Of a stretch of 64,000 nucleotides of DNA, positions 28,191 through 61,394 are shown one piece after another (position 1 is the stretch's first letter; each line of letters begins with the position of its first letter). The stretch comes from Haplodiscus bocki (taxonomy: Eukaryota). The stretch covers positions 1-64,000 of the forward strand of contig CBFHFQ010000250.1 in assembly GCA_965655095.1 (NCBI GenBank), given 5' to 3'. The notes below the pieces were generated by a model. It did not search any database. It was not told the DNA's origin and worked only from the letters and a program-made list of their open reading frames with translations. A program made the translations under genes and the position numbers.

Positions 28191-28199
28191 CCTATAAGC

Positions 28200-28905: not shown

Positions 28906-30589
28906 ATTTTCGAAAAAATCTTGAATCCAAATGCTCATTTAATAAGAGATTTTCATTGAAAAAAATATACGTAACTTTCAATCTAAGACCACTACCTTGT
29001 TCATCTGCTATGGTTAAAATTGGCCCACCTAGTATATATTGTAGAAATTTAGTTGTAGCGTGACCAACCTTAAATTTTTTAGTTATCAATTTGAAAGCTC
29101 TCCCAACAAGCCGATTTTCATTTAACTCAGATTTCTGACTTTGATTTGATGTTTTTTGAGTGCCTTCGAAAATTTATACCGGTTGATTTTTGAAAAACAA
29201 TCTGATTCTAAATTAAATTCTTTCGGAAAGCGTTATTTATGTTCTTGGCATTTATGTTTACTATTAGGGCATACACAAATACTGCAATTGATTTTAATAT
29301 GTTTGACGAGCTTTTCCGCTGCGAGGTTTAGTTTTCCATGTTCCTTTGGGTTATTGTATTCGAGTAATGACGACCTCCAACACAAAATGTTTCTTTCCTT
29401 TAATTTCTACAAAGTTGATTATTCAAGAATTACAGTTGTTTCCGATTTTTCATTCCTTTTATGTTTGAGAAATTCAAATTTTCAATTCAAAAAAAATTTT
29501 ACATCATTCTGGTCAAACTACTCTTAGATTTAATTATTGGCTCCTCATTATTACATTTTTTCCGAAAAATATTTCTCAATTTTTATGTAATATGATCCTT
29601 CAAAATTTCTCATAATCTCATTTTCTTCATCAAAATAGTGATTGTAAATCTTCTTAAGTTCTTTTCGTTCTTTCTCATCCATTTTTTCATCAGTCATTGA
29701 TTTTTTTCCATGTTTTCTCATTAAGTGTGTTAATCATTTTTATCCAATCTTTAGGTTTTGTATATGTCAGTTTAGGTTTTGAAAAGTATTTATATGTAAT
29801 CAATGTTGCAAGACTAACTACAAATAAGTACAACCTACGATAGGGAAACCTATAACTGTTCCAACTTCAGTTAAAGATAGGGATGTACCAACTGTTGACC
29901 CGCTACCCCCAACTAAAACTGTTAAACTCGCCATATATGTTTTTTTCTGTTTTTAATGCAAAGTTTTTTATTATAATCTTCTTTAACAAACCTAAGAGGC
30001 TTCGAAAGAATTTGGTTATCATATTTTCTTGTTTTGCAATTTATTATTCCAAATTCATCATCTTTCATTGTCATTTTCAATAGGGTTGGGTCTTTTTTCA
30101 AGTTAGGATATGACAATATTTATTAAGCAGAAATTGCTACTGAATCAGTTGTAAGGGGAGGTTTTCCTTCAATATTTTTTCACTGTGAGGTTTTTCTACA
30201 GCAAAAGTTTTCATCATTTTATTCCATGATCCGCAAAACCTTTGTATTTCGAAAACCCTTCGTGTGTTTTTCATAGTAATAGTTGTTCAGATATCTCATG
30301 TCTAACATCTTCAGAATAGTTGTGAAAAAGTTCTCGGTTTTTGTTTCTAAAAACTTTTGCGGTGATTGATTATTCCTCATTTTTTATGGTATCAAAATAG
30401 TCTTCGCTTTCTTCATTCACTATTTTAAAATTTTTCAGAACGTTGTTGCTTACCGTTTTTTTCAAAAGTTACATTCTCTCAAAAATTCATCGTCTTTTTG
30501 AATGATAATTCTTATTAACACAGACTTTTTAAAATTTGGGATCGATTTTATTATGATTTTGATGTAATTTACATAATCGACTTTTTAAA

Positions 30590-31860
30590 CACAAATAGTT
30601 ATCATAACATTACTAAGACACATCTTTTGTTGCGGTGTATCTATTTCATCACAAACAAATTCAATTCCAAAATTAGTTTCAGTGATATTCAAATTTAATA
30701 AACTCCATTGTGCTGATGTGGCGCTTTAGTTAATATTCTTATCAATTACGTACTTTTTTCCATTGCTCATTAAAGAAAAGTTGCATTCCAAGTCAGCAAA
30801 AGACTCAATACTATCAAAAATTTAATATGAAAAACTTTTTCAACTAAAACAAAATTGGGAATTTGAATGAAAACTGTTATTTCATAACCAAGGAGACCAA
30901 CTCCATCTCCTGAGTTCTTCGGACTTGTTTTAACGCACAAGAATGATAATCCAATATGTGGCAGAGATGTCGTTTCTGACTGTCAAGTTGGTGAATTTTT
31001 GATTTTTGAAGAGTTTTTGTAATTTTCCATTCAAGGTTTTATCCTTACATTTTATATTCCGTTACTGTGAAGGATAACCACCTGTTTTTGGGGCTAGAAA
31101 CCTTGTTGTGTCTCTGTTTTGTTCTCTGGTTTTTAATGAATATACACAATGTTTCCAGCAATAAGTTTTAAACATTTTTCTAAAGCTGCCAGAAATATGA
31201 AAATAGTATTTTCTATTGTTTTCTCAAGATTATTTTTTTCAATGGCTCCTTCAACTAACAATGGAATTGTTTTGGACGTAAAACTACCTAAAAGTGTCAG
31301 TTTGTTAATATTGAAATCATCATCACGATCTTTCATTACTAAAGGTAAATTACGTTTACCTCTTTCCTTTTCAAATAAGGATTCAGCAACAAAAGATTTG
31401 TTTGAGGCGTGATTATCATCAGTTGGTTCACAAGTTACAATTCTCTGTGATATTTTAAATAAAGATTTAATAATGAGATTAATATTAGGAATTTTTTTAA
31501 CAATGTTGGCTCTTCTATTTTTGATCAATATATTCATTTGGTCTAAGACGTTCTCGGACAGCTGGTAGACTGCTTATTTCCACAAAACAAAAGTTATCAA
31601 GATTTTTTTTCTGTAAATAAAACATGCTCAGTGTATCTTGTTCCACTAATATCGTTTACGTTGTGATCTACACAAGATTTTGTAACAACATCCTGAGAAT
31701 CAACGGGATGTGTAACTTAATAAAAGCATGTGTGAGTGTCTCCTTCAGTATTTTTTTTCAATATAGTTAGTTCTTAAAAATTGTCTGGAACAAATAGGGA
31801 ACTATCAACTTCACTTTGTCTCTCAAGCGAGAAACAAGATATGCTACCAAACACTTTCAT
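30590..31860 (-). pseudogene. P2 fibre/spike-like repeat protein
   Basis: EPTDDNHASNKSFV, DDDFNINKLT repeats; same position as in P1. Confidence 0.5.
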
Positions 31861-31869
31861 TGGCTTTTC

Positions 31870-32276
31870 CTACAAATGAGTTTTAAAACTACTTAATTGT
31901 TCCATTCTTTCATTAGATTGGAAGAGTAACAATAATATGTTCCACATAAAATACAACATATGTTTCGAATGTTGAAAATATGAAAACTGATTGTCGTTGC
32001 TAATTGTTGAACTATATTTTGATCGGGGGATCAGCCAAAAAAAAGATTTTTTGTCTTTTAATCAAAAGCAATTCCAATATGTTCTAACCTTCGCTGCTCT
32101 ATCGATAATTTTGAATCCTTTCTTGGTTTTTATTTTTGAATCTCTAAGGTAATTTGTAATTTTCAATACTTATCATTCTAGCTGAATTGCTCTCTTCCGT
32201 TATTTGATTGTTTAACCCTTTTTTTCATCAAACTTTTTTATTTCAGTGTTGTCAATTGACTGTACTTGAATTTCAT
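31870..32276 (-). pseudogene. P2 adenain-like protease
   Basis: Frameshifted H-WNC ... FG.SP ... CGTYC-like segments; same position as in P1. Confidence 0.55.
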
Positions 32277-32284
32277 TATTTTTT

Positions 32285-33495
32285 TTCTATCTGAAATCAT
32301 TTCAATTTCACTCTTTCTGATTAGAATACTAATTTATGTAGTAGATGAACTGTATAAACCTCAACTATTTGAAGTTTCTTATGGTGTACTTGATCCTTTT
32401 GATTTCCTAAATCAATGAATCGAATAGGAAAAGAAGCCTTGAGATCAGTATAAGTTTTAAATGGTTTCCGAATTGGTTCGCCAACTTACTTTTTATAAAA
32501 TAATTCAAGATCTCTGTATTGATCGAGATAATTGATTGTACCATATTGGATATGGAAGGAACTTTTCAGTTACCGAACTTCATCAATTCGAACAAACGAT
32601 TATCTAGCAACAAGAGTAACAAGATTTGCAATTCTGATTTGTTTGCTTGCTGCTCCTACTCTGGCTTTTGTTTGATATGTTACTGTCAAACAAATTGATG
32701 AATTATTATTTGCTGCTGGTCCCTTATCAAGTTGATACTCTAACCCTGTAATAAGAACTTTTCTATCTTTAGTCCAAGAATCAAATCAAAGTGTTAAAAA
32801 ATTTTGATAGATTCGTTAAACATTACTTGTGTTTTTTCATCTGGAATACTGTTGGGACATGTAGATATAAACTATTAATTGTTACATTCTTATTAACACC
32901 TAAGATTTTGTACTTAATAACTCGTAAACTTGAAGTTATTTGAAAACCCAATCCTTTGGTAACCATTTTAAATGTCTCACTGAAACTGAAAATGTGTTGT
33001 TTTGGTAATTGTCTAGTTTTTTTCCTTTGTTTACAGCTACTTTATGATCATTATTAATTCTTCCTTTTATTGATGTAAATTTAATTAGTTTTCATGAATT
33101 TCATCAAAGTAGGATAGTAATTCTCCGTCTTTATTTTTTGAAATTCGTGTAATGTTCGAAAGAGGACAAACAAATTGACAAATTTCAGTTTCACTAGCTC
33201 CTGTCGTTGCTAGGGTAGGATGTTTCAATGTGTAGGCAAAGGCAATATTTAAAAATCCGATAGCATCACCATCAAGAAACTTAGCACCAACTTCTCCTTC
33301 CTAAGGTTTGATCCCATTGAAGGTATGCATTACTTGTTTGGTGATAGTTGTTCTTCTCTACAGAAATGAATTCAATAATTTGACCGGGATTATATAGTTG
33401 AGCTCCTGTTGATGATAAATCTGAATGTATTCTCTTTTCATAACTGGACTATGAACCGTTGTGTCATCTGAAATTTGATACTCTTCAGCAATCAT
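32285..33495 (-). pseudogene. P2 major capsid protein
   Basis: MIAEEYQISDDTTVHSPVMKREYIQIYHQQ and LATTGASETE align by eye with the P1 MCP. Confidence 0.7.
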
Positions 33496-33689
33496 TTTTA
33501 TACTATGAAACCATTTCCCGGCAGGATATTCTCGGTGAATGATCGTGGATATGGAGGCAACAGAGATGTAGTACCTTGAATTTCAGAGTTAGGCTTAGAT
33601 TTATTAAAGTTTTCTCGTGATTTTATAAAGGTCCTTCAAATTTTACAAAAGTCAATTGAATTTTTCTTTATGATAATAGGAAATTTATT

Positions 33690-34441
33690 GATTGTCATTT
33701 AATTGATTTCATATTTCTAATTTTATGAAAAAAAGAAAATTGACTTTCGAAACAAAATCTTCATTTTCCATCAAATAGCATTGAGCTTCCTCTCTAAATT
33801 TTTTCACTTGTAACCAGGATCTACATCCATTGTGAGACTAAGAATTATTCCCGTTCGCCCCCCCTTCGAAAGCACTGCATTAGCAACATCAGTTCCGAGG
33901 AAAGTATTATCAAAAGATAGTATGTCAACAGATAACATGTCAATCGTATTTGTCAAAAAATACAACTGGCTCAAACACTAAAAGATCTCGTATTCTATCA
34001 CCATGAACAAAAATAATTAGAGTACCTACCTTGTTTGGTGACCCAATAAATTTATGTAATACTACCTGAAGTTGAAAATTTCAGCTTTATTAGAAACGGA
34101 TATTTTGTTGGTAAAATAGCTGTTTTGAGTATTAGTTCGGTCAACTTCTTTGTTTAGGCTCTCCGGTTCGTAGTTTCTCGGTGGATTAGTAATCTGAGTG
34201 AAAATCTCAACATTACCTAATGTTTCGAGGAAAAATTCAATTTTTTTAGTGGCAACACGAAAGATGCCATTATTAACAGTTAGAAAAGTGACAGCCGTTT
34301 CGAATTATTCTTTATCAAATTGTAATGGTTGAGATAATTTTTCTTCTTGTGAAGATTTATTCGAAACAATCAACATATCTTCTTCATTTTCAGGTTTTGC
34401 ATTGAAAACTTTTTCTCCTAAAACTTACTTGAAGACTCCAT
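33690..34441 (-). pseudogene. P2 minor capsid (penton)
   Basis: EEKLSQPLQ...AVTFLTVNNGIF and LTMDVDPGYK align with the P1 penton. Confidence 0.68.
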
Positions 34442-35325
34442 TTAGGTGGGAAGACACTCAAAGCTCTTCAAAACTTTTTATATTTATCAAGAACATTTCG
34501 ACATTGTTGTCCGTTTCGTATTTCACCTTTCTTAACAATCGGATCAATTAATTTTGATGCTTCTGTTAAAGTATCAGTAAGTCCGCTTTGGTTTAGTCCT
34601 AATTAAATTTCTTACCTGGGCCAATTGTCAATATTATCGGAGGGGGTGATATTTTTCATTCCTTCACCTTCAACTTCTTTCAAATGATTTTGCACTCTGG
34701 CTATACAATTTGAAAGATCTCTTTTGAACCATATTTGTCGAACTAATTTTTTTCTCCACGAATATCTTCATTTGGGTTGAAGCTGACACTTTCTAAGATT
34801 TCCGCCAAATTCATTCTACCAACAACACTAAAAATTTCTAAATCGGTATGTGTTGTACTATTTAGGACCTCCTGAATCTCAGTAGGTAAATCATACTCGT
34901 TACCTTTAACCCCAGCTCGATTTCCTCCTAGTGGTGTAAAGACTTAACCTTTTCATGAAAGCTTACCTTCAAGGTTTCGAAATATTATGAAGAAGTTCTT
35001 ACTCTCATTCATGGATCCAAACGTTTTAACTAATGCGCCACTAATTGCTACAACTCCACCATCATCTTCAGGCTCACAACCACTCGCTAGTATTTGATAA
35101 CCTGTGGATAATTGATTACCTTCAACCCACCTTTGTCTTCCTCCTCGGTATCATTAGGTTTTTCCAAACTATTAGTTATGCGTTTAAAGGTTACTGCTAA
35201 TTGTTATTTAAGGTTTTGTTTTGAAATTCTTTTTTTATTTTGATTGTTCTTTTGTTTTATCTCTTGATCTGATAAGAAAGCTGGTTTTATTGTATATTCT
35301 TCAGTCACATTATGGTAAAGACTCA

Positions 35326-36062
35326 TTTAAAGTGTTTAAAAGGATTCGCATCTTCAACGAATATAGAATTTAGTCCTAAACGATAACGTCCTGTATAAAT
35401 GTAATTTGCCAGATCAAAAGTTAATGGTTGACTTGTTTCATTCTAGCAAGTAGAAGGTCATTATTTAAATCCTTTCTAGGTAATGTCTATACGTGCTTTG
35501 TCCCGATACAGATTTTGGACATACTTGAATTTGTTTGGTTTGAAAATGTGATAATTTTTTCCAATAGTCCCGATAGGTTTTTTTTAGTTTTTAATAAATA
35601 TGTTGGCTGATTATGAAAATAGATATAACACTTTCCCTAGAACGTTTAAATATTGCTCTAATTAGAAGATCTGTCAATTCGTTTTCGCTTAAATTGTCCA
35701 GAATAAAAACAAATGGAGAAACCGAATTATAGTCATGAGGGTATTTTAGGTTTGTTTTTGAGTCTTATGTTTTTTGTCTCTGCTTTTTTAAATTTTCGTC
35801 ATCAACAATTTCCTCAATCAATAGATTTGAAAGTTCTTCAAAGATGATGTTTCGGGTTGCACCTAATTACATGAAATTTTTGAAATATTTTAATAATTAT
35901 CGATATGAGTATTGAGGTAGAGATGGTGAAGAGGTAAAAATTTTTCGAAAACCATTGTTTTTCTTTTGAAATTAACTTGGTTAGAAAACATGTTTTTCCA
36001 CACCATGAAGGTGCCGTATTAATTCTTCTAACAGGATGAGATGGATATGAAACTTTACCCAT
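35326..36062 (-). pseudogene. P2 packaging ATPase
   Basis: YPSHPVRRINTAPSWCGKTCFLTKL (degenerate Walker A); ends YTGRYRLGLNSIFV. Confidence 0.8.
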
Positions 36063-36208: not shown

Positions 36209-36408
36209 NNNNNNNNNNNNNNNNNNNNNNNNNNNNNNNNNNNNNNNNNNNNNNNNNNNNNNNNNNNNNNNNNNNNNNNNNNNNNNNNNNNNNNNNNNNN
36301 NNNNNNNNNNNNNNNNNNNNNNNNNNNNNNNNNNNNNNNNNNNNNNNNNNNNNNNNNNNNNNNNNNNNNNNNNNNNNNNNNNNNNNNNNNNNNNNNNNNN
36401 NNNNNNNN
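36209..36408. other. Assembly gap (200 N)
   Basis: Run of N. Confidence 1.
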
Positions 36409-39400
36409 TAGCTCACATGTAGCGGTTTTCTATATCTTCCCGGATCTTTTTTTCAAAACTTCTCCATACTTTTGTTTTCAATTTTGTTGTTTCGAAAAGA
36501 GAGCAAGGAAGGTTTTTTTCCGACGAAAATCAAAGTTGTTTGATGAATGGTTTTTTTTTCAAATTTTTTGATTTTCCTACCTTACTATAAGATTTTGTTT
36601 CGAATTTTTTTCTGAAGTGTTTTTCATGTTTTCAAAAAACGAAAAAAAAAAATTGATTCAGTTTCATGAGAGGTTTTTAATATTAAAGTTAAACGAACTT
36701 TTTCTTCTTCTTGTTGAAATAAGATTTTCCCTCTTTCTTAGTTCTCCAGGAACCAGAAACCGACAACATGTCGGTGTTTTTTGAAACAAACTGCCCCCAG
36801 CTGCAACAGCTTGCTCTGTGAAACCTGCTTAACCAAAAGGACTAATTGTTTTTGATATTGCTGGATGTTGACACTCACGTTTCTCGGAAAGTTTCAAAGC
36901 ACTCAGTATCTCATTCAGCAGCTTTTCACATACTGAGGATTTTTTTAAAAAATAACATCATTTTTCTTTTTGGCGTCTAAAACTTGACAGGCCCAAAAAT
37001 GTCAAAAAGTAGTTCCAGATCTGGGTGTTCAAACTCAAAATTATCCAAAATGCAACCTGTAATGTTTCCATCACGGGCTCAATTGACAGTTTTCTACTTG
37101 AAGAAGACTATTCAGTTGATCTATTATGGATCTCAATCCTTGCGTCGGAATCCTGTCACTCCGAGAAGACAAAAAAAATCAAAAAAATGATGAGACTTTT
37201 GATAAATCGCCATTTTCAATTTCAAATTCCTCCATGACTACAGGCTTGACTTATTCCATTGAAATGCTAATTTGCAGCTTTTTGTTTTTACAAAGCTCTT
37301 TGATTTGAATTTTCTCGAAATTTCCACAAACAGCAAATTTTCATGACACACCAAGATTGCCGAAACGTGCAATTGTTTTTGTTACTGATATTTTATCGAT
37401 TTTCGAACTTTTATTTTTCTAAAGCTCTCGGCCCGAATTCCCCCAACAAAGTTCTATCGCCAACGTTCTATTAAGCCACAGATTTTGCGAAAATTGTTTG
37501 TTTTATGGTCGATCAGTCATTTCATGGAAAAGTTCGCAGAGCCATTGCGCACTTGTTTTTTTTCTAATTGCGTTAAATACTGACAGTTCCGCATTTTTAG
37601 GAATTTCGACCCGAATAAAACAACCAACTTTCCTAGCTAACAAAATTGATACAAAAATTGAATCCTAATCCCCCGCAACTTTTGCAACAACACTGATTTA
37701 TGTTCAAAAGTGGCAAAAACAGAAGAATTCAAAATTTTTTTCGGGTATTCTCGCTTGTCTGCTCCCATAATTGGTTTTCACCAAAAAAATTCTTCCGAAG
37801 AACGCATTTTTTGTCTTCCTCGGCGATGTCTCAAAATTTCACATGATTTCCATGAAAACCAAAATAGCTAGTCAGTTTTTCAAAATTTCCGGTATGTCAC
37901 TTCCAAGTCATTTTGTTTGCTACACATTTGAAAAGAACTTATACGTATTCAGCATTTTGTTGGAGTCAAACTTTCGGGAAAAGGAAGCTATAGTTGATTT
38001 TCAGAAAATTTTGTGAATATTTGATTGTTCCAATTGTTGGTTAGTTGTCGTTTCCGAGTATGTTTTAGAGGTACTGATAGATTTTTTGGAACAGTCAAGT
38101 TCTTTCATATTCCGCAAAAGTTCATTGTTGCAAGCCGCCGCCTTTGATGGACAATTCTGTCAGTAGCGTCTGGAAAACCCCGATTAGGATCACAAAGAGT
38201 TTTCTCTATTCCTTTTGCAGTAATGGGACTATGATGATATGTATAAACACATATTTCTGCGTATATATTCTTACGTATATACACTACTTTTTTCTAGTTC
38301 ATACTTTTGACTATTAAGCATTCTATTCACGATATTAGAAGGAAATGCATAAGGATGTTATCAAAGCAGAGGCCATTTGAAAGCTAGAGTGGCAAAAGTT
38401 ACATGGTATTACCTGTGTGCGAGTTTGTTTACCAATCTTCTCAAGTCTTCGTAGCTGGTTTATTAAAAACCTGCTTTTCTCAAAATGTTGATTTTAAAAT
38501 TGCCTTACAACTGCCGCGTCAAACTGTAAAACATGGACTCAATTTTGACGTCGCTGACGGCAGCTGAGTTTCTACTTCCGCTACTCCGCCTCAAAACGAC
38601 ATCAAATCAGAGGAAAGTTGGCGTGATAAAAAAGTGATTTTTAAAAAAATAAATTTGAAACTGAGATGTAATTTCTGGTTCTAAAACACTGTTAACAATT
38701 AACTCATGCAGCAATAGACGTAAATCGACTGTCAAACGTATGTAAATTTAATTCAAATTTTTTTCCGATTCCTCATCAAAATCCAGTCGTGACGTCAGTT
38801 TTTGACGACTTATCTTAAATTAACGCTACCGTAATTTCAAGTTAAAACTAAGTTAATATACTTTTTTTTATCCAGTTTTCGGGAGATAAATAAAATTTCT
38901 AAGTTTTCCACGAATAGTAAATTAATACTATGTCAAACTCCCTTCACATGCGTTCATTTCTTAATATAGTGTACACTCGATTCAATCATTCAATCATCAC
39001 CTCTATCTTCAGAAAAGGTCCCTACATTGCTCTAGCTACTTAATGAGACCTCAGACGTATGTTTTTGTTTTTGTACATATGAGCTTTTCGCCTCAAATAG
39101 CTTAAACCACACTTGTATAGCTACATGGAACTAAGCAATCCTCGTATGTTACCATCGATATTCAATCAGTGTCACATATGTTACAAACACAGTTACTTTT
39201 TTCAAAATTACTTGAAAATGATGTCATTTAAAAGTGGGAGTAATTTCACTTTGATCTTTGTTTGAGTTTTAGTTACAGTTAAAGTTGCTGTGATAACGTC
39301 ATCATCAAGAAAAGCAGATTGGCAGGTGACAAAATGAAGTCTCCCAGAAAGGTGGCAGTTCAAATCTGAGGGATGCTATCTCAATTCTCCGCGATACAAA

Positions 39401-39565
39401 CCAGCAAATTCACAAAACTTTCTCACCGTTCCTTTTGTCACGCTAATTGAGTTCTTGCCAAACTGCTGTTTTCATACAATTTGAACCTATTCGAGATGAT
39501 GAAAGAAACATGGTTTTAATTCAAGAGAAGAAGAGGCAAAAGAAAAAGTATTTCAGCCAATTGAA

Positions 39566-40441
39566 TGAGTTCTTGAGAAATCCGTATTTTTCGAGTAGTA
39601 CTAGTTGTCTCGAAATCTAGCAAAAAAACATCCTTCAAAAACGCACCCACAAAAAAGAGGAAAAAAATCCTGGTTTTATTCAACCACAATACGTTTTTCC
39701 GTAAAAGCATGGTTTTTTTTACTCATTTGTATGCTGTGTTTAATAAAAAAGAGTTTTTTTTCAAGCACGAAAATTTACACTTTTTCAACCAACCAACCAT
39801 ACACATACTTTGCAGCGGTAAAGAGACAACTTTTTTGCTGCGAATTATGCTGGAGTATTTCGCACAAAAAAAATTGACTGGCCAACTCTATCGAGCATTC
39901 CTGGTAAAGAACGTAGTTTATTACGTTTTGTGCAGATTCGCCGGTGCACCATCTTTTAACCTCACGGTGGAATAAACCACAGAACCTGAGCTAATGCACT
40001 GTATCTGTCTGCTAGTGAGACGGTGATTGGCTAACTAAACCTTTTAAGTGATATTAGCTGGTCAAAACACAATAATTTGTCCCAAACCAGTATCAATCGA
40101 GTGATATAGGCTAACAACCGTCTTTTTCTATCGATTTTGGTGGAAACATGTGTATTGACCACATTGCAACTCCTCAAAAATGATATAACAAAGAAATGGA
40201 TACAAAAAGTTTTTAATTCATCTTTTAATTGTGAATTTTTTGAATTGCTTAAATTGTAAAAATAAGAAAACATCCTTGCATTTAAATTTTACTTGTAAGA
40301 AGTAGATTTTCGGCAACTTCAACCCTTTTTTCAAACATAATTTTCTTCTTAAGCTTTTTTAGGCTGTCTCACAAATCAGCATTTAATTGAAGATTTGTGT
40401 GCAGCAAGAAAAAAATTGTACAAATGGAAAAAGTTGATGTT
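39566..40441. repeat. P3 left inverted-repeat arm
   Basis: Near-identical reverse complement at 46543-47416; the ORF track shows mirror ORFs 39709-39975(+) / 47004-47243(-) and 40031-40273(-) / 46802-47017(+). Confidence 0.93.
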
Positions 40442-41049
40442 GACTTGAAAAACTTAACGTTTTTCGAAAAATATGCTCTAGAGCAATGGAAGGACTTATT
40501 CGTGATATTTGTACTAAGAATTTTATTAGAAAGTGTAATTACAAACAACTAAAATGAAATATTCTTCTATTTCAAAGCGGCGATAAAATTGAAAGTGAGA
40601 AATGTCAAAAGTTTAAAAAAAGTGACACAATTGTCAAATAAAATGCACTTTGTCGTTTTAATTTGAACATAACCGATTGGGAACAACATAAATTATCGAA
40701 ATTTCATATGGAAAACAAATATCTAGTGTGTTTTTTCTTTGAAGCAGTAATCTCTCCAAAAAGTGAATCATTTATTCCATGTCACATTGGAAACTTACGC
40801 TGAATACAAGCTGAATAGGAGAAAAAACAAAGGTACAAGGAAAAAAGATGAACCAAATTTTAAAAAAATTATTTCTACACAAGAAGAGAAAAGAAGAGTT
40901 TTGAAAACAAAAGAACAAAAAACGAAAAAAGCATCGCGATCGATAATTAAAAAGCTATTGGGAAATTGGCTGAAACGATTGAAAAAGAAAATTAACAGCT
41001 AGAAAGAAGTTAGAACCTAAAAAGACACTTCCAAATACTCGAAAATTTT

Positions 41050-41640
41050 TCGGTAGTGATACAACTAAGAAACATTTCGAAAAATCGCTTTTTTTGAGAT
41101 ATGACAGTTAATAAAACCTATGACGACAAGTTGTTTCATCAGAGGCACACTTAAAATTGGAAAAGTGGTCAAGAAAACATCTGTGCGTTTTAAAGACGTT
41201 GAAGCTTACAATAAATACATAGATCAAATTCAAATAAAATATGGCGTTGATGATGTTGTTTTTACTGGATATTTGATTGAGTTTTATGGTCCTGGTTTTA
41301 GAGAATATAATCATAGTGATTATGGTGAGGAAAGTGATTTTTTTTAAAAAATTAAATAATAAGCCAAAAAAATGCTCTATTCCTACAAGACAATTTTTTT
41401 CAAAATGCTTTTGTGTTTTGACCGTAAAATTTTCAAAAGAATAATATATTGAACGTTCTAACGGTTTCAGCAGAAAAACAACAGTCACGCCTGAAGCGAG
41501 AGTTAGAGCAATTTGTAATAAGATGATGGGTATAGATATTGGATATTTCAATTGTGAAGAGATATTACCTAGATCATGTAAAGAAGAAAATAAATGTCTT
41601 CATTTCTAAAAATCTCGTTTTTTTTTGTGATGTCTCAACT
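41050..41640 (+). pseudogene. P3 truncated pPolB N-terminal (terminal-protein side) fragment
   Basis: TSVRFKDVEAYNKYID...FTGY...YG...CSIPT...KC...ARV..C...IDIGYF...ILPRS resembles, from my recall, the N-terminal region of invertebrate Polinton pPolBs; no catalytic motifs follow. Confidence 0.5.
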
Positions 41641-41884
41641 GACTTGTTCCTCAGACAAAATAAAGACTAGCTTTAAAATTTCAAAATTTCATAAAGGTTT
41701 TATATTTCTCTTAATATTATTGTAAAGGTTACAGTTTCACCATTGAAAGCAGCCGAACATAGCATTATTTTTTTGTTAAGTTTTTGAAAACTCGATTCGA
41801 GTAGAATTGTATATATGTTCAAACATAACGCAAATTGAAAAAACTTATCGATGAGTAGGTGCTCAGATTTTTTTGATTTGATAA

Positions 41885-42970
41885 TTAGGTAAAAGTTATT
41901 GTTTCACCCTTGAAATCAAAAGAATTTCTGTCATTGTGTTCCAAGTAAATTGTTACATAATTCAAAACAGATTTATTTAAGTTTTTATAATGTTCTGTTT
42001 CTGGCTGAGATAATATTTTGAAGGCAGTGGGTGTATCGACAGTAAAACTATAAAGTATTGGTTCTCGAATACCATTCAAAATTGATCCGTCTATAAAATC
42101 GCACTTTTTAAGTTTTTCATCTATTGTGGTTTTAGTCATTTTTCTAACTAAATTTTCCAGTCTTCGGTTTATACTCCCAAGTTGTATTATGTGTTAGTTT
42201 TGTAAGACGAATTGTTTTTTCATTCAAATGTGAATTTGCTGTGGAGGCGATGTTTTTTGTTTTTATTTTTGATTTCTCATTAAAAATATCTATAGAAACT
42301 TTAGTTTTTAGAAAAGTAACTAAAGTGCTTTCAATATCTTATACTTTTTTTATAGCTGGTGATATCCCGTTAGTCTCAAAAGTAGAATTACTTTTCTGTG
42401 AAGTGAAAATAACATCATCTTATTCTATTCGGATTGTTCTAAGAAAACTTTCAAGGTCTTTGAAAATGGTTTGTTCAAAATCCTATATACTTTCATCACA
42501 TACTGAATCTTTACCTTTGTTACTATTTCCAGGAGCTTTTTTTTCTTCCTGTGTTGAACGAAATATTTTCTTCATTATGTTAATGTCATCAAACTCAATG
42601 TCTTGTAATTTATCAATTACAACTGGTCTCAAAAATTCGTCTTTAAGATCTCTTGGGCGAAAATTTTCATCATCTTTTCATAGTCTTCTAAGGAAGAACG
42701 CCTGTGTTTTTTAATGGGCCTAGATATTTCGAATTTATTGTTTTCGTTTGTTATATTGAAATTAGAAAAAATTACTTTTAAATTAGTTAATCGTAACATC
42801 CTTTGACCAATTTGTAACTGTAAAAGTATATCAAATGAGAAGGATTATCTTGATTTCTTGTCAAGTTTTGAATTCTTTTGTGCTTTTGTTTAAACTGTTG
42901 AATAAGTGCACCGGTTTTTCTAGTAACCAAAAAATACCGAATTTTCAGCTGTTTTTCTTAGTTTATAAGC
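41885..42970 (-). pseudogene. P3 penton-like gene B
   Basis: RLTNL...FNITNENNKFE; CDFIDGSILNGIREPILYSFTVDTPTAFKILSQPETEHYK...ITFT. Confidence 0.7.
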
Positions 42971-43004
42971 ATTGAGATGAATAGTGAATTCACAAAAATC
43001 GGAA

Positions 43005-44040
43005 TTATGTTTGTATTACTAATAATAAAACTCAAAAATTTTCCATTGATATATAACTGCTATTTTATTCATCTTCTACATAAAACCTTTTCCTCTCCAA
43101 TATAGTTTGGTTTCTTTTTTTTGTTAAGTTTTATTCTAGATCTTTTAGTTGTTTTATGACCGGGAGGCAAAGTTATACTAAATAAATTGTCTAATTCCTT
43201 TTGCAAAAAAGTCACATTTCAAAAAAATCTTATCAATTCCATTCATTTCGTAAGGTTTTTGTTGCTGGTGTAACTTCCATTAGTGTTTTCAACTTTTGTA
43301 AACCCTAATATTTTACGAGAAAATGTTTTTTTTTTAAATTGTAACAACTCATTATGAATGGTATCTATTGTCATAACAGTTCTCATTGTAAAATCATTTA
43401 CAATAAATTCAATTTTTGTGTTTCGCGTTAAAACAACTTTTTTAAGAGTTGTTTATTTCTCTGACTTTGTATGTTCCATGTGGAAGTGAAGAGGTTTTGA
43501 GTTCAACACCAATATGTTTTTTCTTTATTATATATTCTCTTTCATTATATGTTAAGTTCTTTCTAAACACCATATCTTCCGGATAATTACACTTCATAAT
43601 TTTCAAAGCTTTGTAGAACTCATTTGTTTGAAAAATCTTGGTGGTCTGTGAATTGATATAAATCCTACTTTTATTACCAATCCTCTTTTGTTGACTTCGT
43701 TTACATGTATTTTTTTGATTCACTTTGCTTTGTTCTATTAATTCTTCAAGTTTTATAATAGTAATAGGATCTAGCCCAAATCTATGCGTATAAATTGTAA
43801 ATCTATTGTTGTGTTCAGTTATATTGGAAACTGAATTATTTACTGCGAATTTAGTTACAGTGATTGTATGTTTTCCCTATTCTACTTCTAATGGAAGTTT
43901 TTTTCAGAAAGTATCCATGGATTTTGTCAAGTTGAACTCTAAGGTCTCTCTCTAGTAGTCCTGTTTTCCTTCATTCATTTAAGGTGTCAGTTTTGTTTAA
44001 ATTACAAGTAGTAAATCATCTGTTTTTTTTTCAATTTCAT
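43005..44040 (-). pseudogene. P3 penton-like gene A
   Basis: ETLEFNLTKS...NNSVSNITEHNNRF; LPHGTYKVREINNS; LFSITLPPGHK...FYVEDE; paralogous to gene B. Confidence 0.62.
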
Positions 44041-44269
44041 TTGTTAACTCTAAATCCATTACCATCCATTTTCGTTATATTTTTTTTCAATAATTTGACT
44101 TATTTATCCTTTGTTTTGTTGAATTCTTTTCCGAAAACGACTGAAGTTAACATTCACAGTTTCACTATTGTAAGTGCGTTCGCTTTGTGGTCGGTCAGCT
44201 CCGCTGACATACTTTACACTGCTTTTTTTCTGTTTTTCTTTGTGACATTGTTTAATATATTACAAATGA

Positions 44270-45130
44270 AATGCTGCAAATTTTAAATCTTTTTTGAAAT
44301 TTTTTGATCAGGTAAAAACATATAAACAATAAACAGCACAATATCGGTCTTTTCAACTTCTATTCTGAAAAAAAACACATTTTCCATTTCCTTAAAAAAA
44401 TTTTAAACAGTTTCTGTTGTGAAAATCTGTTAGAGTCAAAATAACTTTCGTTTATGTATTCTATTCATTGTGTTCCTATAATTGAATGAAATTTTAAAAA
44501 ACCATGTTTTGTCCTTTTTTTGCTGTCTCACATTTGAATTTTTGTAATTAATCCTATTTTGTTCAGTATTTCTTTTATTTTTATATTTAACATTCCTTGA
44601 TTGTTCAGATCAAATTTTATACCAAGTTCAGAAATCCATTGTAAATTATCTACTTCTAACTGCCTTCTTTGTTTTGTTTTGAATGTAATGTAGTTTTCAA
44701 AGCTTTCTTTTCTTTTTTCAAATCTATCAAATTGACCCAACAAAGAAAGAACTTTTATTGTAGCTTTAGCCGAACGATCAAAAAAATTAGTGTAGTCTAA
44801 TAGCAAAATATTGAAAGACCTATCAATAGCTTTTGAAGATGCTTCTGTACTTCCCTTTATTGAAATATTAGCTTCCCTCATTTCTTTAATCTCTTATAAA
44901 AGTATTTTTTCCTTACAATATTTAAAGGTTTTTTCTATAATTTTGATTCTACCAATTGTGTTCGCAAAGCAAACAGTCTGCTCTGGAGACATGTCTGGTA
45001 ATTGTTTTGATAATTCACATACTGAAATTTTAACTTCATCAATGTCTTCATCGTGAAGTTTACCTTTTCCAGATACTTTATAAAAAAAGTTCAATTCTAC
45101 CTTTTTTGTCTGAATTTATATACCTCATTT
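44270..45130 (-). pseudogene. P3 hypothetical protein (~280 codons)
   Basis: Colinear ORFs 45094-44894 and 44881-44528 separated by a single stop. Confidence 0.4.
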
Positions 45131-45569
45131 ATAACTGGTGTTATGTACAAAAATAGAACAGCAATAAGATAGTTAGGACTATATAATACTTTTTGACAAA
45201 AAAACAAAAAAACTGTGTACAAATACTTTCAGTTATTCTTGCAGTTGTTTTAGTAGTTAATTTGTTTTGTTTTTTGAATAGTTTTTCGTATTTTTCTAGG
45301 CCTATCTGATCCATCGTAATTTTCGGTTGAAAGTGCAATTTTCATTTCCTTTATAGTTTTTTCATGAGATTTTCTATTTTTGAGAGTGTAAAAGTTAGTT
45401 TTTTTTTGGTATTAAGTACAAGTTGTATGTCCATAGCCTCATTTGTTGCTCCCGTTATATTTTTTGCTTCTTGAAAAATAGTCTTTGTGTTAAAGCAGTA
45501 TGACTTTTTCGGGATTGAGTTTTTTTATGATTCATTTGAACCTTTGTTAACAATTGTTTCCATATCTCT

Positions 45570-45963
45570 GTGTGTCTCTGGATTGCTTTCAATTGTTTCG
45601 TTAAATTCCGTCATTTGGTTTTCTTAGGAGTTTTATCAACTATATCTTCACCAGAAAAAATCTCCTTCTCAGTCTCACGTTTTGTGCTTTTCACAGTCAA
45701 AAAACCATCCGGTGAGCTGATCTTCTTTCTTTTAGTAGTCTTTCTTTTTAGGGACTAGGCATGTTCATTTGGTCTCTGTATCTTTTAATTGTTGAATCTG
45801 AATAACTTAATTGCTGTGCTAGTTATTTTTGTGTCAATTTTGAATTATTAGGTTTATTTTCATTAAATCTATACATTAGATCTAACTTATATTCACGTAA
45901 AAATGAACTAGTTAAAAGTTTTCTTGTTTTAGATATTTGTCCTAACGAATAAGTCTTCGTCAT
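45570..45963 (-). pseudogene. P3 helix-turn-helix protein
   Basis: MTKTYSLGQISKT...KLTQK*LAQQLSYSDSTIKRYRDQMNMPSP: classic HTH pattern (TQxxLAxxLxxSxxTIxRY). Confidence 0.62.
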
Positions 45964-46542
45964 TTAATATTTAATTAAAATTGATTTTTGTTTCTATTAA
46001 TTAAGAAAATGTTATTAATTCCGGAAAAAGAATTGTTGTACAGAACAGAAGGAAATATGTGTATTAATCAAAAACATAAGGAAAAAAAACAAACTTGATT
46101 GATAAAACAATATTAAAAGTTATTCATGAAAATCGTCTTCAAAAAAGTATAACGAAAAGTTTTTTACAGTCCCTGCAATCAAATTGTAGTTAGTTTTCCT
46201 ATGGCTTCTCATGTACTTTCTAAAGATCATTTTCCGAAAGCTATTAAACTTATGAGGAGAAATTTTAATTCTGTAAATTTTGTGATTTTTTTAATGATAA
46301 AGAAGATAAAGAAGATCATGAAAGTAGACGAGATGTTTATGGAAACGCTAAAACACACTTAGGCTATTGTAATAGTCCTCCTGTTTTTTTGAAATGTTTG
46401 TAAAATTTTAATTTGTAAAAGCAAAATTGATAGACATTTTTAAAACGAAAGAAAATTTTTATTTAAAAAAAGAAAGGTTATTGAACGACAAAAAATTGTT
46501 ACAACTGCTTCTAGTTCGGTAAATTGAGAAAAAAACCAAAAC

Positions 46543-47416
46543 TAACATCATGTTTTTCATTTGTTTTTTTTCCTTCTTCACACAAATCTTCATTTAAGTG
46601 CTGATTAGTGAGTAGGCTTAAAAAAGCTTAAGAAGAAAACTATGTTGGAAAATAGGGTTGAAGTTGCCGAAAATCTACTTCTTACAAATAAAATTTAAAT
46701 GCAAGGATGTTTTCTTATTTTCACAATTTAGGCAATTCAAAAAATTCACATTTAAAAGCTGAATTAAAAACTTTTTTATCCATTTCTTTGTTATATCATT
46801 TTTGAGGAGTTGCAATGTGGTCAATACACATGTTTCCACCAAAATCGATAGAAAAAAACTGTTGCTGGCCTATATCACTCGATTGATACTGGTTTGGGAC
46901 AAATTTTTGTGTTTTGACCAGCTAATATCACTTAAAAGGTTTAGTAAGCCAATCACCGTCTCACTAGCAGACAGATACAGTGCATTCGCTCAGGTTCTGT
47001 GGTTTATTCCACCGTGAGGTTAAAAGATGGTGCACCGGCGAATCTGCACAAAACGTAATAAACTACGTTCTTTACCAGGAATGCTCGATAGAGTTGGCCA
47101 GTCAATTTTTTTCGTGCGAAATACTCCAGCATAATTCGCAGCAAAAAAGTCGTCTGTTTACCGCTGCAAAGTATGTGTATGGTTGGTTGGTTGAAAAAAA
47201 GTAAATTTTTGTGCTGGCAAAAAATCTCTTCAATATTAAACACAGCATAGGAATGAGTAAAAAAAACAATGCTTTTGCGAAAAAACGTATTGTGATTGAG
47301 GAAAACCAGGATTTTTTTCCTATTGTCTGTGGGTGTGTTTTCGAAGGAAGTTTTCTTCGTGTGATTTTAAGAGAGGTAGTAGTACTCGAAAGTTACGAGT
47401 TTTAGTGCAAGACTCA
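46543..47416. repeat. P3 right inverted-repeat arm
   Basis: Reverse complement of 39566-40441; a Polinton-like ACTACT lies at 47436-47441. Confidence 0.93.
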
Positions 47417-48502
47417 AAAATTCGTATTTTTCCGCACTACTTTCGTTGTAGTTTAACCGAAATTATAGAGTTTCATTGGGTGGCTGAACAGACTGTGTTT
47501 TGCACCTTAGGTAAGATTTGATTCTGTTGGGTTTCCACTTGGGCTTCGTTCCCCATCGATAATTTTCTTCAGGTTTCTATACACAACCTTTTCACTTTCA
47601 AAATTTCTCACGGAGGTATTTTTTCACTATTTTCTGATTTGCAGACTAATATGGTTGCTTCCAATAGTTCAACATTATCCATCATTCATTAGCAGTTTTC
47701 GCAAGCAAACAGTTGTCTATAAAATTTTCCTCAATTATCTCTTCTATATTGTGACATCTCAACAACTCTTTGACTTGTTAATATATTTGTAAGAAAAAAA
47801 AACAAAGAATACAACGTATAAAGAAAGTTTAATTATCTGGCGAAATACTTCTGTGTGAGTAAAATATTCCAATATTCTTAGCAGTCGTTCCCTTTTTTTC
47901 CGCGATTGTAGTGTATTGCCCATTTGTAACTTTTACCTTAGCGTACTATGGCTGTGTCATACCTTCGCTTCATTGCCTTCTTGCGTTTGCCATAATGATT
48001 GATATGGAGACCTTTTAATAGTTCTGACACTCTATAGAAGTCGTATCACTCCATTGACGTCAAATTCACATCAGCATCAAAACTGCAAATATTACGACTG
48101 TATATTTGTGTTTTACGGAGCTGTGGTTTATCATCTTGTATAATTTCAAATTACTGTATTTCTACGAATTTTCTTCGGTTCTGCTGTCCTCACAACCCGG
48201 GTCAAAATTTCGATTGAAATTTTTCTACGATAACGGCGGAAGAAAAATTGCAAAACCGACGGTAATTCGTAGAAAAATAACGGCAGTTACCGGCGTTTCT
48301 TGGAAAAATAACATCGATTACAGCCGTTTCTTAGGAAATTTCTGCCGATAAATTACCACCCATATCCTAGAAAAGTAATGGCGGACTTCGAATCGCCACT
48401 ATCTTAGCAAAAATTAGCCGATAACTTTTTCACCACTGTCGTTCAACATTATCAGCGAAAGTTTCCAATTTTCGAACACCTCAACTAGTTAGTCAAAGGG
48501 AT

Positions 48503-49720
48503 TTAAAAAATTATACCAAGTTGTCGGACAACGTTGCCTTCCACAAACCAAGTTTGCAGATGATGGGAACAACAGTCCTTATGTTTCAAATTGGAGGCTC
48601 TCAACTCGCGGGCACAATTTAGCCCACTTGACAGGATCCACGACGAAAACGTGGCCTCCATAGTACCCCAATAACAGACAAACAATCGAGATAACACAAA
48701 AAAGACAACAAATTAAAAATCAAACAGTCAGATTCCGAAATGGAACAAAATGGAAAAGGCTCAATAAATACATCTAAAAAGACAAAAAGTGTGAGTCAAG
48801 AGAAGAAAAAAAAGTAGATATTATTTTCGAACTAGGCTCTCTTCCACAAACAATGTTTGCAGATGATGGAAGCAGGAGTCCTTGTCTTTCAAGTTGGAGG
48901 CTCTCAGTTTGTGAGCGCAAGATAGCCCATTTGACAGAATCCACGACAAGTCCACTGGCATGTATATACATCTTCGTTCCCGGAAACTCCCGCAATCGTT
49001 TCGGCATCACCTGGAAACAGAAGGAAAATGAGCCACTGATAGGACCAAAAACCTGCAATGTAGAAAAGAGAGCAACCAATTCTCAAGAACATCCGTGAGA
49101 GGACTCTTTGGAGCGCGGATGTCCGACCCTTTTTTCTCTCGAGCTCTTCTTTCGAAGTCGGCGCGCCAACCTCAAACTCGGAACAAGACACATATGTCCG
49201 AGGCAATCCAGGCTATTTTTATAAAACTACTGGTTCTCCAGAGCGATCAGACACTAAAGCACAACAGCCTAACGAAGTCATCTTCATGTTCCAGCGCGCG
49301 CAGCATAACTAGCACAATAGAATTCATTGACTGGCCAGCAAGGAAATTCTAATTGCAAGGCTAATGGTAATTGATGAAGATTTGAAGACTCACATTGTGG
49401 AAGGTGAGCGGTGTCAACAACACCCTCGGACACTTTCTTCTCCAGTGTCTTGCGACGAAGGATCTCTCAGAGCGTGAACCCCTCAGACTCGTACCCAGAG
49501 ACTCCAACCTCGTCAACGCCACCAACAACATCAACGTCCTCATCTTCGTCCTCCACATCTGCCTCCGTGCCCGCCTCTGTCTTGCACACACCGCCTACTT
49601 CATTTGGTCCCTATGAACCTCCCACAGGACTCTCCTCGCCTCCCTCTCCAGCAAATTTCTCTTCGGGGACATCAAAAGGGAAGGGAAACGGCAGCTTGAA
49701 CAACTGACTTACAGTCCGTT
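48503..49720 (-). pseudogene. Decayed acidic ORF of an unidentified repeat, with a duplicated C-terminal module
   Basis: EDEDEDVDVV acidic run; SWILSNGLSCAHKLRASNLKDKDSCFHHLQTLFVEE (48841-48950) is repeated as SWILSSGLNCARELRASNLKHKDCCSHHLQTWFVEG (48537-48650). Confidence 0.4.
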
Positions 49721-52399: not shown

Positions 52400-53414
52400 G
52401 ATCACTCCTCACTCCTCCACTTTTGGTGAATCTGCGTCTGGGGCTTGTTGTTACAAATATACACCGTTTTATCGAGTACACTCCAAAGAAATGTTTCAAT
52501 AGGTTTGTAGAGTCAGCAGTAGATGCCAGAAAACTGGTGGATGAGAATCCCAGGTGTTGTGTCGTTGCGGGGACAATAAGACTGCTAGCCAGTAATGTCT
52601 ATGGCTATCAGATTATGGATCGCAGTCGACACACTGTATCGGAGTACCTCAGCGACAAAAAAACATGCAGCTAATATTAATTTGTTCAAAAAACCAAGTC
52701 AAGTGAACACTTCATTTTTTGAAGTTGAACTCAAAAACGCACAGGTTGAACACAAAGAGTCTATCATTGTCCGGTTCTTCATTCTTCAATACGCAAAACT
52801 GCGAATATTGGAGCTGTACTACAACTTCTTCACCAAATTGTGTGGTGTAAACAAGTTCGAAAAGTTGGAAAGACCCATATTCGCTGTATCTTGCTCTTGC
52901 CGAGAAAGAACAGGAAGATTGTATCAGAACTAAAATGAGAGCGGAAGGGCAGCGGTTACGATCAAATCACTGTGTCAGTAGTTTTACTGCCGATGCTGAA
53001 GCAATTTTTTTCCGTCGAACATGTTCTGTAAAACACAAACAACAAGATAAGAGAGAGCTTGGCCTCTTCAAAGTAAAATTCAGATGTAGAGAGATGTTAT
53101 GTCTGGGTAGTAAGACATACTGTTGCTATGACGTCACCTCTAAGAGACTTAAACTTAGCAGTAGTGGTTTCGACAAACGTGTAGCGAATCAGAGCGGCAA
53201 AGGACCACGGGAAAAGTATCGTAGAGCCTTGAACGAAAAGGTTAACGTCACATCCAAGAATAAAGGATTCCGATCACACAAACACTCTGTTAGTACCTCC
53301 GAGCAAGTCAAGAAATGTCTGTCCTACTTCTACCCAGAACGAATAGTCGAGAGTGATGGATATCACACTCAACCACCTAAGTTGTATATTGTTCATTCAT
53401 TTTTCGTTTTATAG
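52400..53414 (+). pseudogene. P4: C-terminal pPolB fragment of a different Polinton lineage
   Basis: RLLASNVYGYQIMDRSRH (motif B variant), ILQYAKLRILELYY, DKRELGLFK..F.C.EM.CL.SKTYCC, LSYFYPERIV. Confidence 0.82.
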
Positions 53415-53502
53415 TGTCGTGTATTTGTCAAAGTTTATACATTCTAATCAATGCCTTTAATCTATTACACAATATTTTAACATAGCATTAAGTCATATCG
53501 GT

Positions 53503-53600
53503 ATCCGCACGCGTTATGAAATATCCGCACACGTAATAAAACATCCGCACCCGTAATAAAATATCCGCACGCGTGATAAAATATCCGCACGCGTAAAAAA
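53503..53600. repeat. 20-bp tandem repeat (ATCCGCACnCGT...), 5 copies; probable subterminal repeat of P4
   Basis: Directly visible; follows the pPolB stop; candidate terminus TACAACT at 53631-53637. Confidence 0.8.
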
Positions 53601-53732
53601 AGATGCAAGCCCGCAAAAGTTGAGAAAATTTACAACTAAGTAAGGATTAGACCCGTTGTAAGCCCCACATCTGCAAAGGACCCCCACCCTGTTGTGAAGA
53701 CCCTCATCCCCTATACCAGTTAGGAGCATTGC

Positions 53733-53872
53733 CTATCTTATAACATTACCGAACTATACCTTATCTTAATACATTGCCGGGCTGTACTCTATCTTAGTAC
53801 ATTGCCGAACTACACACTATCTTAAAACATTGCCGAACTTTACCCTATCTGAACTCATTGCCGAACTATACC
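53733..53872. repeat. ~29-bp tandem repeat (TATCTTAATACATTGCCGAACT...), about 5 copies
   Basis: Directly visible; a related unit occurs at 51867-51905. Confidence 0.85.
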
Positions 53873-54005
53873 TGTCGCAGCACACCTGCGAGGCATGCGA
53901 CCAGCTCCTACCAGCCAAAAAGACACCCTAACGCTCAGGAGAACTCAAACATTACATACTTTTAATCAAACTCTAACTGTCACTATAACATGTATTTTTG
54001 ACTGT

Positions 54006-55711
54006 TGTGCATATAGACGGATACGTATAAAAAACGTATCCCTACCAATGCATATATATTTGGGTACGTATTTTTACGGAACCAAACTGATCCGGACTAA
54101 GACGGAACCGCTACGGAACAAACAAGTGTTCAAAAAGTATTAATAACTATGTAATATATAAAAATGCTATGTAGTATGTGAAACCAAATATCGCTGAGCA
54201 TATTATAAATTAGCTGTTACTCAACATCAATACCAATAGTGCAGAAATGACAAGATAAAACAGATTCGACAGGTGCTAGCTTCTGATTCAAGCTCTAAGA
54301 TGAAAATACACATTAAGAGACTAGAAGACACCATTAAGCTTCGGCCGGAAATCTGCTACAAATACATGTGTCCTCCGTAATGCAGTAAAGTGACTATATA
54401 AACTTGTATTGAGCTGAATCTACACTACATCCGTCCCTATGTTTCCACTCCAAAATCCATTCTGCTATCAGCGCACAAGGAGACTCTCAGTTAGAGAGAG
54501 ATATAGCAGTAGATAGGACAGAAGTAGAATGGATTTGGGAGAAAGTAAAGATTTACATAGTTTTCCACCTTTCCAAGATGGAAAACGGTAGACATTGACT
54601 CTGCGACTGAGCTACCGACAGATGCCGATGAATAAAACACACATGAGTATATGCTAGACAACACACATCGGTTTCGGTCGGGAGAACAGCTTGCACCAGA
54701 TTTCAGACATTTTACGATGTCTGAGGACTTGATACTAATGCTGAAAATTTAAATACATGTAAACATACATTTTCCAATGTCTGTTTAATGAATAACTTGA
54801 TGTATCAGTACTCAGACGTATTCCGATGTACCATGCTCAGAATAGCACTACAAAAGAGTACATAAGATGTAAATTGGAAAATTCTGTAAAACACCCCCAA
54901 GGAACATATGAAACCATGTACCATGCAATTCGTCATATTTAGCCTTTATTTCAAAGAATTGCATAAAGTTAAGGTTTTATCGCTCTAGCTGTGGATTCGC
55001 GCGTCATGCAGTAATTAACTAATTATCATCTAGGCCGACGAGCCAATGAGAACTCACCGATGGTAATAACTGCGTCTAACCATCGGTCACGTGACCGCGC
55101 AAACCCAACCGCGGAAAGTTAGTAATTATAACTAGAAGAAGCGAGAGAACCACCGGGCAGACTACGTGCAAGCCAGGAAGTTTTAACGATTCTCATCATC
55201 TACCGTGACTTATATTTTAATACGTCGTTGTACCTCATGGGTAAAATTTGATTTTCTAAACTTTCCAAAATATACTCTCTGAATAAATATATCGGCCCAA
55301 GTTCTAATTTACCTCCTGCCAATTGTATGAGCTTTTCATGTGTGTTTAAAACACTAAGAAGCGAAAATTCGTACTAATTGAAAACGCAGCCCAAAATGTC
55401 GACGTATGGAGATGGAAACACAGAAGAAGGGGAAACGGGAGTAACTGAAGACAGCGAGGAGAATTACTTTGGACTCTCTCCAGAGTAAGTGGATGAGAGG
55501 ACGAAGATTAGCCTTGATCCTCTACATGCACAAATCTCTACCCTCACCGCGATGGTGGACAAATTACTTCAAAGCAATTTGACCACGGAATCTACGACGA
55601 CGAGTACCCGAGGGTCCGGACTCCAACAAGAGTCACCTTTCAGTGAAGGACCGGGATCATCTAAGTTCCCAACAGTAGCACCTCTGACCACCGCGGGATA
55701 CTCGCCCGACA
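54006..55711 (+). mobile_element. Solo LTR (1706 bp) with 5-bp TSD
   Basis: Starts TGT, ends ACA; ACTGT at 54001-54005 and 55712-55716; gag-like ORF start from 55396 runs to the LTR end. Confidence 0.78.
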
Positions 55712-59023: not shown

Positions 59024-59025
59024 CG

Positions 59026-61030: not shown

Positions 61031-61394
61031 TTTGGTAATGGTAAAATGTGTCCAACTGCACTACACAAAAGTCCTACCTAAACAGTTGATTCGCCACAGG
61101 GTTCTGATAGTTTGATTTTCCAAAAGCAATTGAAGATAATCAACAAAAACACAAAAAGTTGGTACAAAAACACAATAAAAGATCTCGAACACGTTTGTTC
61201 CAAACAGGCCCACGTTTTCTTCTCTTGATTGTTGCGTCAAAGACAAGTTCACCTAAATGAAAACTATATTTTTGATCCGTCATCTGTCTTGTACGCTCAG
61301 TTTCTCAATATTGAATCTTGAAAAAACGATTGAATCAATTTGAAAGATTTCAATTCGTTGACGTCGACAACACAATGCACAATAAAAAAAATTT

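Follow-up and report, generated by a model that had tools for sequence, protein, structure and literature searches.

At positions 39566-47416 of a 64,000-nt stretch of Haplodiscus bocki contig CBFHFQ010000250.1 (hereafter the window) lies a segment of ~7.8 kb bounded by inverted arms (hereafter the unit), which is probably what deletion and mutation have left of a Polinton that integrated long ago and came from a family with three pentons; it would now be present as a dead single copy. As a virus, the unit is inactive now. An earlier note on this DNA had described ~870-bp inverted arms enclosing ~6.1 kb, with two penton-like paralogs, a third penton-like C-terminus, a helix-turn-helix (HTH) gene and a convergent N-terminal stub of the protein-primed B-family DNA polymerase (pPolB), and had proposed either a one-off internal deletion of a third-family Polinton or a mobilised satellite or genome segment.

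Tandem penton genes and the tail of a probable third

A query covering 41888-42193 retrieved, in 25 of 166 candidates, proteins of 200-360 residues which map to two full-length penton-like genes, each covered lengthwise by homologs of 350-360 residues; the same set of 200-360-residue homologs also matches, more weakly, the penton of a neighbouring Polinton in the window (element 1, see below). The AlphaFold model of one homolog, P0008 (predicted local distance difference test score, pLDDT, of 56), recovered the mavirus penton at ranks 1-6 of the PDB (E 1.7e-3 to 8.6e-3, with 0 matches below 0.001), and against BFVD the adomavirus LO5 protein (E 5.5e-4) and virophage minor capsids came out on top, with 1 match below 0.001. 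With a model of modest quality and low template modelling scores of 0.2-0.36, the penton identity of the paralogs is regarded as well supported but not strong. The single jelly-roll penton (minor capsid protein) of Polintons is thus represented in the unit by two full-length pseudogenes, and homolog mapping together with the fold of P0008 confirms the two paralogs reported earlier.

The third penton-like C-terminus was likewise recovered. The stretch 41814-41703 aligned with homolog C-termini over 37 residues at 41-43% identity, 0 of 60 shuffles equalled the best score that it gave with the C-terminal portion of homolog P0024, and hhalign returned a probability of 63% (E 7e-5); a penton hidden Markov model alone did not detect it. 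Only ~50 bp separate the end of penton 2 from this tail and, therefore, the front of the third penton is gone. A mere copy of the penton 2 end was also considered as the source of the tail, which may still be the case; however, the tail aligns equally well to the short-type penton end of element 1 (score 58) and to penton 2 (55). No description of tandem penton arrays in Polintons was found in searches of an open-access library, mostly at the level of listings.

A severed polymerase start and two inferred deletion junctions

On the opposite strand, an open reading frame (ORF) at 41105-41344 gave 66 protein matches, one of them to itself, and a profile of the stub matches shorter than 400 residues, self-match excluded, aligned to 40982-41683. 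The alignment of seven stub homologs retrieved L001, which codes for a protein running into ExoI/II motifs and Pfam PF03175 (DNA_pol_B_2, E 5.7e-9). The stub corresponds to residues 81-240 of this protein at 36-37% identity and ends ~30-35 codons ahead of the ExoI motif, which begins at residue 294. Since the L001 protein was matched at its start only and continues into the exonuclease and PF03175, the stub reads as a polymerase N-terminus severed before the exonuclease, in agreement with the convergent stub of the earlier note. By its position, the region is predicted to be the terminal-protein/vOTU part. The polymerase homologs of element 1 do not match the stub, and the unit is therefore of another polymerase family. 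When proteins were searched by word index for the latter half of the stub, none of 12 candidates matched.

Five polymerase homologs used as queries gave no match in the unit at E<=0.05, and no exonuclease or palm remnant was seen. Five pieces from the neighbour (ATPase-like, capsid-like, two integrase-region ORFs and one hypothetical) also gave no match at E<=0.05, the capsid-like and ATPase-like queries being from another family and thus of limited sensitivity. No rve match was obtained among the 28 ORF pieces of the unit scanned, while the neighbour's piece scored E 1.6e-5. For the protease, no Pfam match was found among the same 28 pieces, and no protease query was used. The earlier statement that no integrase, ATPase, major capsid or polymerase core could be recognised consequently holds for the ten core-gene queries, with the reservation that these come partly from another family.

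The layout requires two separate cuts, whose inferred positions are given in Table 1 together with the other features of the unit. From the joints listed between read contigs, relatives seem to have undergone different deletions, at 41213-41532 and 43949-44228, both indications being weak and with short sides.

Table 1. Features of the unit, in window coordinates; stops and frameshifts are approximate counts
Feature	Position	Strand	Remarks
Left terminal inverted repeat	39566..40441	+	AGTAGT motif at 39594; ATG near inner end, 40424
Broken ORF, inner end of left arm	40424..40800	+	three-frame reading
N-terminal stub of protein-primed B-family DNA polymerase	40982..41683	+	1-3 stops, 1-3 frameshifts (5 homologs)
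Inferred deletion junction A	41684..41700	.	polymerase stub adjoins stop codon (41700-41702) of third penton
Probable third penton, C-terminal ~37 codons	41700..41814	-	remainder of gene absent
Inferred deletion junction B	41815..41865	.	between penton 2 end and penton-3 tail; exact site not located
Penton-like pseudogene 2	41865..42960	-	full length; 3-4 stops, 3-5 frameshifts (3 homologs)
Penton-like pseudogene 1	43007..44062	-	full length; 4-6 stops, 7-9 frameshifts (3 homologs)
Short broken ORF with CxxC motif	44090..44248	-	sequence alone
Broken hypothetical gene, ~200 codons	44528..45130	-	sulfotransferase-like by language-model features alone
Broken hypothetical gene	45140..45610	-	weak sub-threshold Pfam rows only
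Helix-turn-helix-like pseudogene	45750..45963	-	weak Pfam and PHROG matches
Possible broken ORF, inner end of right arm	46120..46560	-	sequence reading
Right terminal inverted repeat	46544..47416	-	AGTACT at 47381-47386, one change from ACTACT

Gene decay and copy number

The penton genes are pseudogenes and the stub is broken. Stops and frameshifts were counted by frameshift-aware alignment to natural homologs 28-43% identical, and no stop-free stretch on the coding strands of the unit is longer than 144 codons. Simulated sequences of 1% divergence acquired at least 4 stops per 350 codons in 0.5% of cases; for a divergence of 6-9% the share was 62-90%.

Copy number was approached with four read runs (X1-X4) of one study and two samples (S1 and S2), in which the stretch is present (0.89-0.95 of sampled words shared) and which may include the source of the assembly; they are not independent support. 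The read-contig rows covered amount to 15 of 975 joints, 24 of 9428 loose ends and, for the arm letters discussed below, 40 of 1112 rows. Two contigs identical to the window, one spanning 42047-43692 (1646 bp) and the other 43676-45778 (2103 bp), showed depths of 33.4 and 38.1 in X1, where the contig that extends into the right flank stood at 33.8; the corresponding depths were 28.6 and 34.1 versus 36.1 in X2, and 11 and 11.2 versus 11.6 in X3. In X4 the depth was 34-35.7 inside the unit versus 34.1-40.5 in the flanks, and rose to 78.6 in the arm core, as for about two arms. All 4 runs thus show the exact sequence of the unit at the depth of a single copy and, this depth being equal to that of the flank, a recent sibling is absent.

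Diverged relatives of every part of the unit are present in the genome. At 80% likeness, summed contig depth, which does not equal copy number, reached 4-41 times single copy in the interior bins, rose to 50-115 times for the arm core and exceeded 400 times in the bin with the penton C-termini. Elsewhere in the window, nothing matched the unit at E<=0.002 when all six frames were compared. Viral contigs, scanned three times, and metagenome contigs, scanned once, yielded no relatives; a further scan of metagenomes returned 1 of 70 candidates, whose contig of 2.4 kb does not extend far enough to show gene order.

Inverted arms, ends and flanks

The arms described earlier are supported by both BLASTN and shuffling. 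By BLASTN, 39583-40441 and 46544-47397 are 91.6% identical over 860 columns, and the inverted similarity extends ~30 bp outside the AGT motifs (39594 and 47386), with a score matched by 0 of 1000 shuffles. The length of 860 bp lies within the range of 100-1500 bp given for Polinton/Maverick terminal inverted repeats (TIRs) in 10.1101/2023.08.22.554363. For the (AGT)2/(AG)3 motif expected at the very ends of a Polinton, the candidates are AGTAGT and AGTACT, which lie ~30 bp inside the limit of inverted similarity. The inner end of each arm is close to an ATG.

Divergence is strongly uneven along the arms. In segments picked after inspection of the data, mismatches amount to 35 of 199 in the outer 200 bp (17.6%, or ~9% per arm), the most diverged part, to 10 of 400 in the core (2.5%) and to 20 of 253 in the inner part; the longest identical run, of 125 bp, was equalled in 5 of 10,000 permutations. 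The arms of element 1 differ at 107 of 614 positions (17.4%), like the outer arms of the unit; between the two pairs of arms no clear relation was detected, 5 of 200 shuffles being as good. In our reading, the true age is recorded by the outer arm, the core having been homogenised at a later time. At 39964, 40028 and 40106 both arms have common letters which, in the rows listed, are rare among the dozens of relatives, where only ~1-4 copy-equivalents of depth carry them. These rare letters agree with a later homogenisation of the core, although a founder with private variants may look alike. An assembly collapse of the identical core is unlikely, as independent contigs break at the mirror positions 39810 and 47169, the points where the arms turn near-identical, and the depth in X4 doubles there.

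The arm core (39783-40182 and 46800-47200) is also GC-richer (41%) and may be where the family conserves a promoter or origin; a comparison with Rfam gave 0 matches at E<=1. Around the unit, no target-site duplication of 5-8 bp was found at the AGT motifs, and one in-register 6-mer (39548-39553 and 47424-47429) has a shuffle P of ~0.10. The left flank and outer left arm (38000-39810) are represented by a contig at ~1/4-1/3 of the interior depth in three S1 runs and not in S2, which suggests other haplotypes there.

Origin of the unit

The broken genes, the cuts within genes and the single-copy depth all fit the first option of the earlier note, a one-off internal deletion of a Polinton of a third family. 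In such a course of events, a full-length Polinton with convergent modules would likely have integrated long ago, its polymerase reading from the left arm toward the middle and its structural module, with three tandem pentons, from the right arm toward the middle. Of at least two deletions that followed, cut A would have taken the polymerase core and cut B the greater part of penton 3, and the genes for major capsid, ATPase, integrase and protease were presumably lost with one or the other. Point mutations and small indels would then have built up in the remaining genes, and gene conversion probably made the middle of the arms alike again at a later time. Deletions are routine locally, as the polymerase of element 1 is without homolog residues 110-376.

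Several observations weigh against this history. There is no convincing target-site duplication to tie both arms to one insertion; the 2.5% divergence of the arm core is far below what the decay of the genes implies, so that conversion would have to be invoked. The interior summed depth has a floor of ~4-6 times single copy, a level that a few old siblings with the deletion could reach as well, and no full-length member of the family was seen. No contig among those listed spans 41226-42046.

It is conceivable, but we consider it unlikely, that the deletions came first and left an ~8-kb derivative of the three-penton virus, devoid of polymerase, integrase and major capsid genes, for which full-length relatives, by recognising the 870-bp ends, provided repeated copying and integration in trans, all copies having decayed since. 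Such an old non-autonomous subfamily would account for this interior depth floor, for the ~50-115-fold depth of the arm core at 80% likeness, for an arm core much younger-looking than the genes and for the retention of both arms. On the other hand, no near-identical copy exists, the exact contigs being single-copy in all four runs, and full-length relatives explain the summed depth equally well. Furthermore, none of the 15 joints covered lies at the junction. The cis-acting ends are not preserved, the arm ends being the most diverged part and the end motif being altered on one side; because these ends, needed for replication and integration, are the most decayed part, the satellite reading is weakened. 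The mobilised satellite or segment of the earlier note is thus poorly supported in view of single-copy depth, broken genes, decayed arm ends and two mid-gene cuts.

More doubtful still is a chimera, in which the left part (arm and polymerase start) and the right part (arm and structural genes) would stem from two related insertions that were brought together, either through ectopic recombination or through a deletion spanning neighbouring copies. The strongly uneven arm divergence and the lack of a convincing target-site duplication, apart from a 6-mer expected by chance in 10% of shuffles, would agree with it; however, an old duplication may decay past recognition, as that of element 1 matches at only 4 of 6 bases, and the rare letters common to both arms tie them together, although conversion would do likewise. 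Finally, a segment of a multipartite Polinton-like virus, carrying vertex proteins only and packaged with complementary segments of like ends, is very improbable: the gene content is indeed penton-biased and bidnaviruses, which use a related polymerase, are described as having two segments with matching termini (PMC8502044), but an evolved segment would not hold a polymerase cut in mid-gene and a front-less penton, the genes are broken with no intact self-contained set, the copy is single, both neighbouring Polintons are of one monopartite layout, and no report of a segmented Polinton was found among 15 of 28 open-access papers listed.

Other open reading frames of the unit

The HTH gene of the earlier note is present as an HTH-like pseudogene, but its matches are weak: 45963-45750 gave Pfam HTH_11/24/31 at E ~0.02, below cut-offs, and PHROG repressor families at E 0.016-0.03. 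At the inner end of the left arm, 40391-40549 matched Pfam PRS2_N at E 4e-5, with 23.5 bits against a cut-off of 27. The left-hand ORF and the ORF at the inner end of the right arm are unrelated, their local alignment being at shuffle level, and the CxxC ORF had no Pfam or PHROG match. The ORF at 44528-45130 reached an Atlas score of 0.94 to viral sulfotransferase-domain proteins, with merely 113-118 of 256 features in common; Pfam, PHROGs and PDB sequences lent this lead no support, and the fold predicted from the single sequence (pLDDT 39) was unusable. Were it a true sulfotransferase, it would be an unusual cargo gene.

Neighbouring Polintons and the rest of the window

The window appears to be animal nuclear DNA. 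Host gene pieces with NIDO, AMOP and VWD domains lie at 2221-4519, and the two assembly gaps, of 200 bases each, are both outside the unit. Element 1 (4968-20131, plus strand) is a decayed full-length Polinton with arms, ATPase-like, penton, capsid-like, integrase and polymerase remnants and a decayed 6-bp duplication; ~267 codons (~800 bp) of its polymerase are deleted at 17088/17097. Its left arm contains a copy of the polymerase C-terminus (5610-5489), and one homolog of its polymerase, P0031, has an intein with a LAGLIDADG endonuclease within a Polinton polymerase (Pfam E 7e-10 and 6e-7). Element 2 (~23700-36050, minus strand) is a decayed Polinton with the gene order of element 1, most of the matched pieces being 26-58% identical at the protein level; no pair of arms was recognised for it, and an assembly gap lies at 36209-36408.

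To the right of the unit, a very high-copy repeat at ~48200-48950 exceeds 1000 times single-copy depth in one bin and holds an internal direct repeat with 303-bp spacing. Farther on, 52400-54150 and 58400-63100 contain more fragments, of a GC-richer family, which we take to resemble the Polinton polymerase C-terminus and structural-gene remnants, without Pfam support, and a 28-bp tandem array is found at 53725-53863.

Comparison with known Polintons

Among vertebrate Mavericks, 96% of 3,511 loci are reported as degraded, the intact ones measuring 12.7-24.6 kb with two inward-pointing modules (PMC8097293, Barreat and Katzourakis 2021). Like the fossils described there, the unit has a TIR within 46-1,447 bp, a candidate AGT end motif, inward modules on opposite strands, and stops and frameshifts. 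Unlike the intact elements of that study, it measures 7.8 kb, has no integrase, ATPase or major capsid remnant that was found and no clear 6-bp duplication, and carries more than one penton. Fragmented Polinton copies and remnants are also described in insects and nematodes (PMC8504770, PMC11414722). The Polinton pPolB is given the order TP-vOTU-EXO-PALM (terminal protein, vOTU, exonuclease, palm) by Krupovic et al. (10.1101/2024.03.18.585575), and the stub matches the L001 region ahead of the exonuclease, where TP and vOTU are expected from that order; unlike a complete pPolB, it is severed before EXO and broken. Closest to the pentons of the unit among known proteins are those of mavirus (PDB 6G41/6G42), adomavirus LO5 and the adintovirus/MELD pentons, from which the family of the unit differs by a ~90-residue helical insert and by two copies plus a tail in one unit.

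Repbase holds 'N' families further to Polinton-N1A_NV. The latter is mentioned by name as a non-autonomous Polinton in PMC11296320, and Tlr1 is sometimes called one as well (PMC5499653), whereas an apparent absence of non-autonomous copies is stated for a lizard (PMC3014272). Tlr1 is, like the unit, Polinton-related and without a complete pPolB; it is described, however, with ~30 copies and retains capsid, ATPase, integrase and helicase (PMC5499653), none of which the unit detectably retains in its single exact copy. Compared with the 13-25 kb and intact ORFs of an autonomous Polinton, the 7.8 kb of the unit is Polinton-like in origin but falls outside the autonomous elements, as a derived remnant.

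Taken as a dead deleted copy, the unit carries little weight, since most animal Polinton loci are fossils; it nevertheless records a Polinton lineage with more than one tandem penton gene. If the same junction were to recur elsewhere, it would be sequence evidence for Polintons mobilising defective derivatives in trans.

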